DNA of 43,955 nucleotides from a virus, in UHGV virus genome UHGV-0152227; one strand, written 5' to 3'. Both the position numbers and the translations under genes were made by a program. Position 1 is the first letter of the stretch; each line of letters begins with the position of its first letter. Shown here one piece after another: positions 8,164-8,319 of this stretch. Below the pieces are notes generated by a model, which worked only from the letters and a program-made list of their open reading frames with translations, searched no databases and was not told the DNA's origin.

Positions 8164-8206
8164 TTGCAATTACCAAGTGGAGTGCTTATATTTACCTTTG
8201 CGGTAA
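8164..8206 (+). promoter_or_regulatory. Promoter (TTGCAA-N17-TATATT) with operator palindrome TTACCTTTGCGGTAA at its start site
   Basis: -35/-10-like hexamers; operator 8192-8206 matches the TTACC-N5-GGTAA family found at other early promoters. Confidence 0.5.
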
Positions 8207-8297
8207 ATTTACATCGCACTCCTCTTGTGCCATAGTAATCGGGTACTGGCAAAATCCAGTGCCGGGATTGGCGTCCCGAGTTACTAAGTGGCGCATA

Positions 8298-8319
8298 CCA
8301 CGCCAGACGTGGTTTTTTT
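8298..8319 (+). terminator. Rho-independent terminator in the leader upstream of the BRO-N antirepressor
   Basis: CCACG-ccaga-CGTGG followed by TTTTTTT. Confidence 0.6.

Follow-up and report, generated by a model that had tools for sequence, protein, structure and literature searches.

The UHGV virus genome UHGV-0152227 (43,955 nucleotides (nt), one strand read 5′ to 3′ and called the window as a whole) carries two antirepressor genes, each preceded by a leader containing a promoter and a terminator. Each leader is very probably an immunity-RNA cassette of the P1 immI, P4 CI and Gifsy-1 IsrK kind. One known mechanism explains both leaders, and the finding is real and mostly already explained; its modestly new part is that the sRNA-Xcc1-type RNA of the second leader, judged from comparative evidence, appears to act as c4-like immunity RNA of a second class. 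A sequence-only reading of the same DNA had pointed to the promoter-terminator-gene layout and proposed attenuation or small-RNA control resembling that of P22 ant. The layout is present in both leaders and the features it listed could be located; small-RNA control of both genes is strongly supported by Rfam families, complementarity and covariation, and calling it “a second safety catch on induction”, as that reading did, describes the function fairly. The window resembles the epsilon15/phiV10-like podoviruses of E. coli (Uetakevirus), present as an integrated prophage.

The whole window was scanned against Rfam at gathering thresholds, which returned four matches: a tRNA, IsrK, C4 and sRNA-Xcc1. 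The three leader matches are all on the plus (sense) strand. Two of them lie in the first leader (module 1), the parts of which are given below; a and b denote short boxes, numbered 1 in the short leader RNA and 2 on the antirepressor mRNA, and primed in the structured RNA.

8208-8236, plus strand: predicted conserved promoter of the IsrK-C4-ant transcript, TTTACA-17-(TG)CATAGT (9/12 matches, extended -10 TG-n-CATAGT)
8243-8319, plus strand: IsrK-family short RNA (RF01394), 63.5 bits versus a gathering score of 50, terminator included
8268-8274, plus strand: proposed decoy box a1, UUGGCGU, in the loop of IsrK hairpin 2
8284-8291, plus strand: proposed decoy box b1, CUAAGUGG, between IsrK hairpin 2 and the terminator
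8297-8313 with a U-run to 8319, plus strand: intrinsic terminator of leader 1, called by the terminator scan
8344-8427, plus strand: C4 antisense RNA (RF01695), 66.0 bits (gathering score 45), aligned over the whole model
8385-8392, plus strand: box b′, CCACUUAG, in the loop of C4 hairpin 2
8399-8405, plus strand: box a′, ACGCCAA, in the 3′ junction of C4
8430-8436, plus strand: box a2, UUGGCGU, in the ant mRNA target region (8430-8466)
8457-8464, plus strand: box b2, CUAAGUGG, overlapping the Shine-Dalgarno sequence GGAG (8463-8466)
8476-9186, plus strand: antirepressor 1, BRO-N with a C-terminal Ant effector domain (Pfam PF02498, E=1e-19; PHROG anti-repressor families)

In module 1, b′ is exactly complementary to b1 and b2, and a′ is exactly complementary to a1 and a2. 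The IsrK RNA consists of two hairpins, a single-stranded stretch and the intrinsic terminator (fold z=-2.1), and a permissive scan placed the c4-a1b1 family (RF03163) at 8230-8282 with 43.4 bits, slightly below its gathering score of 46.7. Because the Rfam IsrK match ends at the first terminator, this terminator is the 3′ end of IsrK, and the ~150 nt separating it from the start codon hold the C4-family RNA, whose fold (-43.6 kcal/mol, z=-5.0) is far more stable than that of shuffled sequence. The predicted mature C4 extends from ~8350 to 8425 (76 nt), its closing stem being followed by A-CCA (8422-8425), which resembles a tRNA 3′ end. The predicted start of the 8208-8236 promoter, ~7 nt downstream, coincides with the first position of the IsrK model (8243). 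On the mRNA side, a conserved local hairpin (GGUGGU 8440-8445 with ACCACC 8470-8475) exposes b2 in its loop, and no icd-like open reading frame (ORF) lies between b2 and the antirepressor ATG, which directly follows b2 and starts at 8476, not 8477. The order IsrK, C4, BRO-N antirepressor recurs in ~28 representative loci. Leader 1 and its gene share 91-98% identity with phages HEMP4, TL-2011b and phiV10, and the phiV10 annotation at this locus consists of a “putative anti-immunity protein” and a terminator, with nothing else.

The second leader (module 2) repeats this arrangement with other sequences.

41656-41685, plus strand: predicted promoter, TTGACA-18-TATATT (11/12 matches)
41692-41751, plus strand: short leader RNA resembling the P1 a1b1 leader, without an Rfam family
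41700-41706, plus strand: box a1, UGAACAC, the 7-nt loop of hairpin 41695-41709
41711-41717, plus strand: box b1, UCGAAAG, in the leader RNA
41724-41744, plus strand: candidate terminator hairpin CCGCA-N11-TGCGG, followed by T6 (41746-41751)
41771-41860, plus strand: sRNA-Xcc1-family RNA (RF02221), 64.2 bits versus a gathering score of 53
41826-41832, plus strand: box b′, CUUUCGA, in the loop of Xcc1-type hairpin 2
41835-41841, plus strand: box a′, GUGUUCA, in the junction of the Xcc1-type RNA
41860-41866, plus strand: box a2, UGAACAC, the 7-nt loop of hairpin 41854-41870, in the target region 41854-41892
41884-41890, plus strand: box b2, UCGAAAG, overlapping the Shine-Dalgarno sequence AAGGA (41888-41892)
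41902-42621, plus strand: antirepressor 2, ORF6N (KilA-N-like) with the same C-terminal effector domain (Pfam PF10543, E=3e-19; phrog_1760 anti-repressor, E=1e-91)

Here too, b′ is complementary to b1 and b2, and a′ to a1 and a2, exactly and over 7 nt. The second gene had been described as KilA-N; its layout and its ATG at 41902 stand, while Pfam assigns the domain to ORF6N. The promoter is kept in the related loci L161-L163, L114 and L164; phage Nil2 carries a homology-based promoter annotation for it, and in Shiga toxin (Stx) phages both module types have promoters homologous to it. The Xcc1-type RNA, which sits between a methyltransferase gene and the antirepressor gene, beside the integrase, is built in a c4-like manner, with a closing stem and two hairpins together with a 3′ junction and an RCCC tail. 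The Rfam structure lines of C4 and Xcc1 are indeed alike, with a long closing stem, two hairpins, a single-stranded junction of 6-7 nt and a CC-rich 3′ tail, and the Xcc1-type RNAs of relatives score 63-79 bits on RF02221. RNAalifold, applied to six Xcc1-type RNAs, recovered the closing stem with covariation and not hairpin 2, for which the Rfam structure line was used instead.

The pairings were examined further in 159 viral loci with genes related to those of the two antirepressors, the leaders of which fell into 30 clusters at 97% identity. In nearly every representative, IsrK lies ~240 nt and C4 ~55 nt upstream of the start codon; the IsrK/C4 cassette precedes both BRO-N and ORF6N antirepressors, and a few loci carry the Xcc1 type instead. 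Among 72 distinct leaders of the C4 type, 21 a′/b′ combinations were found, drawn from 8 a-types and 14 b-types, as in the following two sets.

a′ GUGCUAA with a1 and a2 UUAGCAC; b′ UCCGUA with b1 and b2 UACGGA
a′ GUUCCAA with a1 and a2 UUGGAAC; b′ GAUUACC with b1 and b2 GGUAAUC

The partner in cis gave the best predicted duplex in 21/21 combinations on the IsrK side and in 20/21 downstream, with a mean of ~-19 kcal/mol in cis versus ~-11.5 in trans. In the a-box alignment, 98.3% of the cells are paired and 5/7 pairs show double compensatory changes, for a1:a′ as well as for a′:a2; this score was unmatched in 500 shuffles, slid controls were 23-43% paired, and the two unpaired cells stem from a one-base insertion in a single lineage. 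The count used anchors chosen on invariant flanks only. Because whole-leader MAFFT alignment misaligned the b-boxes, which vary in length, the formal count was limited to the a-box and the b-boxes were tested by the comparison of cis with trans. In the locus L084 (956-1203), b2 (TCACTATGAA) covers the start codon and not the Shine-Dalgarno sequence.

The Xcc1 type behaves likewise. Six loci (the window, two Stx2a/Stx1c phages, Nil2, one viral contig and one E. coli prophage) hold three a-types and six b-types, each of the latter changed at b1, b′ and b2 together.

b-types of the Xcc1-type loci: TCGAAAG, TGCAAAG, ATACAAG, CAAGTAG, GCGATAG, CTTCAAAG

Elsewhere, the two Stx2a/Stx1c phages share ~93% and ~88% identity with the window, yet their b-boxes differ. 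Covariation of this kind provides strong comparative support for pairings that appear to be under selection. Family membership, complementarities, covariation and a P1-like layout are thus established computationally for these leaders. Plain constitutive attenuation, in which a terminator merely lowers read-through and no RNA-RNA pairing takes part, would account for the promoter-terminator-gene layout of both leaders; it leaves unexplained why structured RNAs recognized at the Rfam level lie between terminator and gene, and why a and b change in a three-way concerted manner over 27 box combinations. Attenuation alone is therefore very improbable.

Within the window, the ordered arrangement of four boxes arose in 0/50,000 flank shuffles for either module, and no further a-b pair occurs anywhere beyond the two modules. 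Since the box sequences of the two modules differ, these are predicted to be orthogonal locks. Cross-talk between them was considered and rejected, as the predicted duplexes are weak (-4 to -6 kcal/mol, versus -8 to -13 in cis).

The strand on which the RNAs lie also bears on the comparison first made with P22. In such an arrangement, an opposite-strand antisense RNA of the sar type would cross the ant ribosome-binding site and act together with repressors of the Arc/Mnt type. The likeness is functional only: in both cases, an antirepressor gene of a temperate podovirus is under additional, partly RNA-based, multilayer control. In P22, sar comes from the opposite strand, whereas all RNA-family matches here are on the sense strand, Rfam gave no sar match at E≤1 anywhere in the window, and neither 8160-8480 nor 41650-41905 holds a minus-strand promoter-like site. 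The adjacent small ORF has no ribbon-helix-helix match in Pfam and is instead a homologue of the Ant C-terminal domain. A P22-like system has hence almost no chance of being the right description, and the appropriate analogy is with P1, P4 and Gifsy-1.

In phage P1, the c4 RNA is excised from its leader by RNase P as a stable RNA of ~77 nt, and its repression of the antirepressor was reportedly worked out by Citron, Schuster and colleagues. By analogy, we infer RNase P processing, translational repression and a decoy function for both leaders of the window. A transcript would start at each promoter, that of module 1 being flanked by an operator of the prophage repressor. Its first part would be a short terminated RNA carrying a1 and b1, namely IsrK in module 1 and the P1-like leader RNA in module 2, and transcripts reading through the terminator would contain a tRNA-like structured RNA, C4 or the Xcc1 type respectively. 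This RNA would be cut out by RNase P and accumulate, a route with which the C4 closing stem, the A-CCA that follows it and the predicted 76-nt product are consistent. Its exposed b′ (hairpin loop) and a′ (junction) would then pair with b2 and a2 on the antirepressor mRNA, and because b2 overlaps the Shine-Dalgarno sequence, translation of the antirepressor would be blocked. The short terminated RNA, with a1 and b1, would compete for a′ and b′, acting as a decoy that lifts the block when in excess. On these grounds, the terminators would define the 3′ termini of short decoy RNAs and would not be simple attenuators.

Several observations weigh against this mechanism. The leader RNA of module 2 has no recognized family and folds no better than shuffled sequence (z=+0.3), and its terminator is weak, with a 5-bp stem and an 11-nt loop. 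Furthermore, b1 is often a weaker match than b2, with G-U pairs or a shorter pairing. In Gifsy-1, the authors credit activation to the translation of orf45, coupled to that of anrP, and not to relief at the anrP ribosome-binding site, and constitutive co-expression of the STnc1160 region strengthened IsrK toxicity, unlike what a simple picture of repressor and decoy would give (PMC4825925). According to that model, the read-through transcript adopts an inactive fold until IsrK, in trans, opens the orf45 ribosome-binding site at the 5′ end of C4. It was demonstrated experimentally in Gifsy-1 (PMC4825925), and an AUG at the C4 5′ end (UAUGG, 8348-8350) is conserved in all loci. In the window, however, the ORF starting at this AUG is cut to 14 codons by a UAG in the b′ loop, which leaves 86 nt up to the ant ATG, so that the published coupling cannot operate in that form. 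Across loci, the length of the ORF varies between 3 and at least 45 codons and its stop between -122 and a position past the ant start, and it encodes no conserved peptide beyond the part constrained by the RNA; because it is not conserved, the orf45 coupling route cannot be general. The covariation of a2 and b2 with a′ and b′ is also left unexplained, which makes this model an improbable one for the leaders considered here.

A closer competitor to the block of translation proposed above is termination of the P4 type, in which pairing of the structured RNA with a1 and b1 while the leader is being transcribed, as well as with a2 and b2, would promote premature termination, the terminators being antisense-dependent attenuators. 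It may coexist with translational repression. P4 CI works in this way with seqA and seqC, and C4 and isrK have been recognized as relatives of CI and seqA (PMC4825925, PMC10111431). The terminator of module 2 was not called by the scanner and is absent from the unconstrained minimum-energy fold, yet it is kept in six related loci and in P1. Beside b1, GCGG (41717-41720), CCGC (41724-41727) and UGCGG (41740-41744) can form mutually exclusive hairpins, the GCGG/CCGC hairpin (41717-41727) competing with the terminator hairpin, and the GCGG-CCGC-UGCGG motif is likewise kept in the six loci and P1. With b1 blocked, the terminator hairpin takes over in the minimum-energy fold of both the window and the Nil2 leader. 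The energy difference is small (-12.8 versus -10.7 kcal/mol), L164 and P1 form the terminator whether or not b1 is blocked, and the stems are invariant, which leaves either hairpin without covariation support. The IsrK terminator of module 1 is strong, and occupancy of b1 leaves it unaffected; that b2 is placed on the Shine-Dalgarno sequence in all loci speaks for control at the level of translation. Control by termination is considered less likely than not, and the predicted folds give a weak hint that an antisense-dependent termination switch is possible in leader 2.

The promoter region of module 1, from which the immunity-RNA transcript would start, holds further features, given below with the other members of its repeat family in the window.

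8164-8192, plus strand: upstream promoter-like site TTGCAA-17-TATATT, with its predicted start inside the operator
8191-8207: operator-like perfect inverted repeat TTTACC-N5-GGTAAA, between the two promoter-like sites of module 1
34299, 34361, 36600, 36648, 37360, 37422, 9258, 26710, 29855, 10508: other 17-nt sites of the repeat family

A promoter with an operator at its start site had been described upstream of the BRO-N gene. Both the 8164-8192 site and the repeat overlying its start exist, whereas the conserved promoter that fits IsrK is the one at 8208-8236, which is kept in all relatives, including those with unrelated upstream DNA. The 8164-8192 site is kept in close relatives only, a -10-like hexamer abutting the operator in divergent ones, and may be a second, tandem promoter, as P2c4 and P1c4 are in P1. 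The counts of the promoter scan as such were not above chance (4 versus 2.8 expected and 3 versus 2.4 expected). The inverted repeat is kept in relatives with differing flanks, and in phiV10 the spacer is inverted with the half-sites kept. Its family, TTACC-N5-GGTAA, has 13 sites within 2 mismatches in the window versus 1.25 expected; pairs of them flank the divergent repressor-like genes 36334-36564 (minus strand) and 36719-37303 (plus strand, encoding a regulator of 194 residues), and one site directly follows the first antirepressor gene. At the same limit of ≤2 mismatches, the window scan placed no member at the module 2 promoter. Given this distribution, the 8191-8207 repeat is probably a binding site of the main prophage repressor and the counterpart of Oc4 in P1.

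Three copies of ACYAAGTGGMG (8172, 8283 and 8456) had also been listed as regulatory sequence. All exist, and the last two are b1 and b2. The copy at 8172 does not covary: it stays ACCAAG(T/C)GGAG in loci where the b-box is CTAAAAGG or CTACAAAGG, and it sits in the spacer of the 8164-8192 promoter-like site. It was rejected as a further target box and is probably a chance repeat. Similarly, the palindrome described near the ribosome-binding site is real (GTGATTAAAATCAC at 8444-8457), with a right half that is not conserved in relatives and appears lineage-specific. Only the left half (GGTGGTGA) is conserved, and it pairs with ACCACC before the ATG; hairpins equivalent to this pair occur in other lineages, and the palindrome was discarded both as an operator and as a conserved hairpin.

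The two antirepressors are identical over their C-terminal 85 amino acids and have different N-terminal domains. The DNA encoding the shared domain (8914-9210 versus 42346-42646) is 92.4% identical, as compared with 100% for the protein over these 85 residues, a contrast better explained by purifying selection on the domain than by recent duplication. A third copy is found in an 85-residue ORF at 7903-8160 (phrog_450, unknown function), which shares 39% identity with the C-terminal domains of the two antirepressors. The effector domain is thus present three times in the window, under three different controls. CTGT-N8-ACAG matches the window only 3 times, one of them at 7866-7881, and this box is kept before the homologous ORF in relatives despite diverging flanks. 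Because no terminator was seen between the 7903-8160 ORF and IsrK, transcripts induced by the SOS response may run into the cassette of module 1. A broader proposal is put forward tentatively and with rather less than even confidence, in which the Xcc1-type RNA would be a second, unrecognized structural class of c4-like immunity RNA with a P1-like decoy leader. One effector domain would then be gated by three independent inputs, namely a LexA-box promoter (the 7903-8160 copy), the repressor-controlled IsrK/C4 lock (BRO-N) and the orthogonal leader/Xcc1 lock (ORF6N), and the boxes would form an RNA “barcode” deciding which co-resident prophages silence or release each other's antirepressors.

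Related loci show how such cassettes are combined. In the Stx phages phiSTEC1589-Stx1c (L162, 560-1760) and Nil2 (L163, 470-1755), the two types stand in tandem, in the order promoter, IsrK, C4, antA and directly thereafter promoter, leader, Xcc1-type RNA, antB, with homologous promoters for both types (GGGGCTATATTCC). In E. coli NRZ94505 (L164), a prophage beside guaA has an MT-A70 methyltransferase gene, a small ORF, an Xcc1-type cassette, an antirepressor gene and an integrase gene, as in 40800-43955 of the window, with boxes and an antirepressor N-terminus that differ from those of the window. No complete E. coli genome covers at least 80% of 40800-43955; the best match, at 69%, has, at the equivalent position beside an integrase gene and guaA, an Xcc1-type cassette with other boxes and an antirepressor with another N-terminus. 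From these comparisons, module 2 of the window looks like a swapped-in, Stx-phage-like cassette.

Some neighboring features were also noted. A tRNA gene lies within the prophage at 27048-27121 (Rfam, 73 bits), and from its anticodon loop, CUUCUAA, it is taken to be tRNA-Arg(UCU). Downstream of antirepressor 1, the ORF 9461-10033 (phrog_1651) has a weak Pfam match to the YafO toxin (25.8 bits versus a cut-off of 25). In some related loci (L153, 1855-2029; L108, 1808-1957), the antirepressor gene is immediately followed by a sok antitoxin RNA of the hok/sok type I toxin-antitoxin system (117 bits), and another locus (L132) has an isrI match.

Antirepressors decide on prophage awakening, and RNA locks of this kind would hence set induction thresholds and the cross-talk between prophages, including Stx phages, in which both cassette types occur in tandem. 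The comparative evidence suggests that phage RNAs of the sRNA-Xcc1 family work like c4, in contrast with the view of these RNAs as virulence small RNAs in plant pathogens. In addition, the many natural compensatory variants of the boxes represent a ready-made table of specificities.

The sRNA-Xcc1 of Xanthomonas campestris is reported to be integron-encoded, trans-acting and virulence-regulated, and work in Xylella treats its homologues as virulence small RNAs. The RNA of the window differs in lying in a prophage leader, and not in an integron, transposon or plasmid, in its c4-like architecture and in its covarying a1/b1 and a2/b2. In APSE phages, sRNA-Xcc1 was noted upstream of an ORF6N protein “of unknown function”, and c4 and isrK were recognized before a BRO-N gene (PMC7313666). 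The family is not in the C4 clan of Rfam, and no statement that sRNA-Xcc1 RNAs act in a c4-like manner was found in the searchable papers. With the satellite phage P4, the leaders share, as predicted here, a processed sense-strand leader RNA that pairs with one upstream and one downstream site (CI, seqA and seqC). CI acts chiefly through premature termination, whereas here the downstream site overlaps the antirepressor Shine-Dalgarno sequence and an effect on termination is a computational hint restricted to module 2. The Rfam profiles of C4 and isrK detect relatives of CI and seqA, and such “immunity RNAs” occur in zones of Bro-family genes (PMC10111431).

The Gifsy-1 prophage of Salmonella (locus isrK-orf45(STnc1160)-anrP) is similar in its order of IsrK with a terminator, a processed structured RNA and an antirepressor gene, and in that transcription of the gene requires read-through of the terminator. 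There, supplying IsrK in trans increased the translation of anrP by 114-171-fold (Hershko-Shalev et al. 2016, PMC4825925), and compensatory mutations link isrK G28/G31 with C162/C159 (PMC4825925), which means that IsrK pairs with the structured segment downstream. By numbering on the Rfam isrK consensus, G28 and G31 appear to fall in the a1 box; C159 and C162 would presumably lie in a′, and the pairing would then correspond, in this mapping, to a1:a′. The RNA downstream of IsrK, STnc1160, is stable and processed, and the authors noted a likeness to P4 seqA and CI (PMC4825925). Hfq binding and trans-activation of antirepressor translation by IsrK were shown in Gifsy-1 only (PMC4825925).

A further counterpart is the immI region of phages P1 and P7, in which c4 controls icd-ant. 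The GenBank annotation of P1 comprises the C1 operator Oc4, tandem promoters, a1, b1, the 77-nt c4, a2, b2, icd and ant, and labels a2 and b2 “repression of icd ant translation”. Sub-threshold in P1 (L165), a match to IsrK covers 231-312 (35 bits, E=2e-5), with a hairpin and U-run (CCGCAGAUUUCCGAUAUUGCGGUAUUUUU) that are unannotated in the P1 record. By comparison, a complete RNA of the IsrK family, strongly terminated, makes up the a1b1 segment of module 1, P1 reaching 35 bits on isrK versus a gathering score of 50. P1 further differs in that icd, whose translation is required to express ant, precedes ant, whereas b2 in module 1 lies on the Shine-Dalgarno sequence of the antirepressor itself, in that its antirepressors are Ant1/Ant2 and not BRO-N and ORF6N fusions, and in being a plasmid prophage, whereas the host of the present cassettes is an epsilon15/phiV10-like integrated podovirus with two orthogonal cassettes in one genome. 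The leader of module 2 shares with P1 the GCGG-CCGC-UGCGG-U-run motif after b1. Module 1 has the parts in the same order as P1, with b′ in a hairpin loop, a′ in a junction and an RNA of 76-77 nt, and scores 66.0 bits on RF01695 as compared with 68.8 for P1's own c4. In P1 and module 1 respectively, the spacing is 14 and 16 nt from a1 to b1, 67 and 59 nt from b1 to the start of the structured RNA, 4 and 5 nt from its end to a2, 29 and 27 nt from a2 to b2, and 11 and 12 nt from b2 to the ATG, so that four of the five intervals differ by ≤2 nt and the interval from b1 to the RNA differs by 8 nt.

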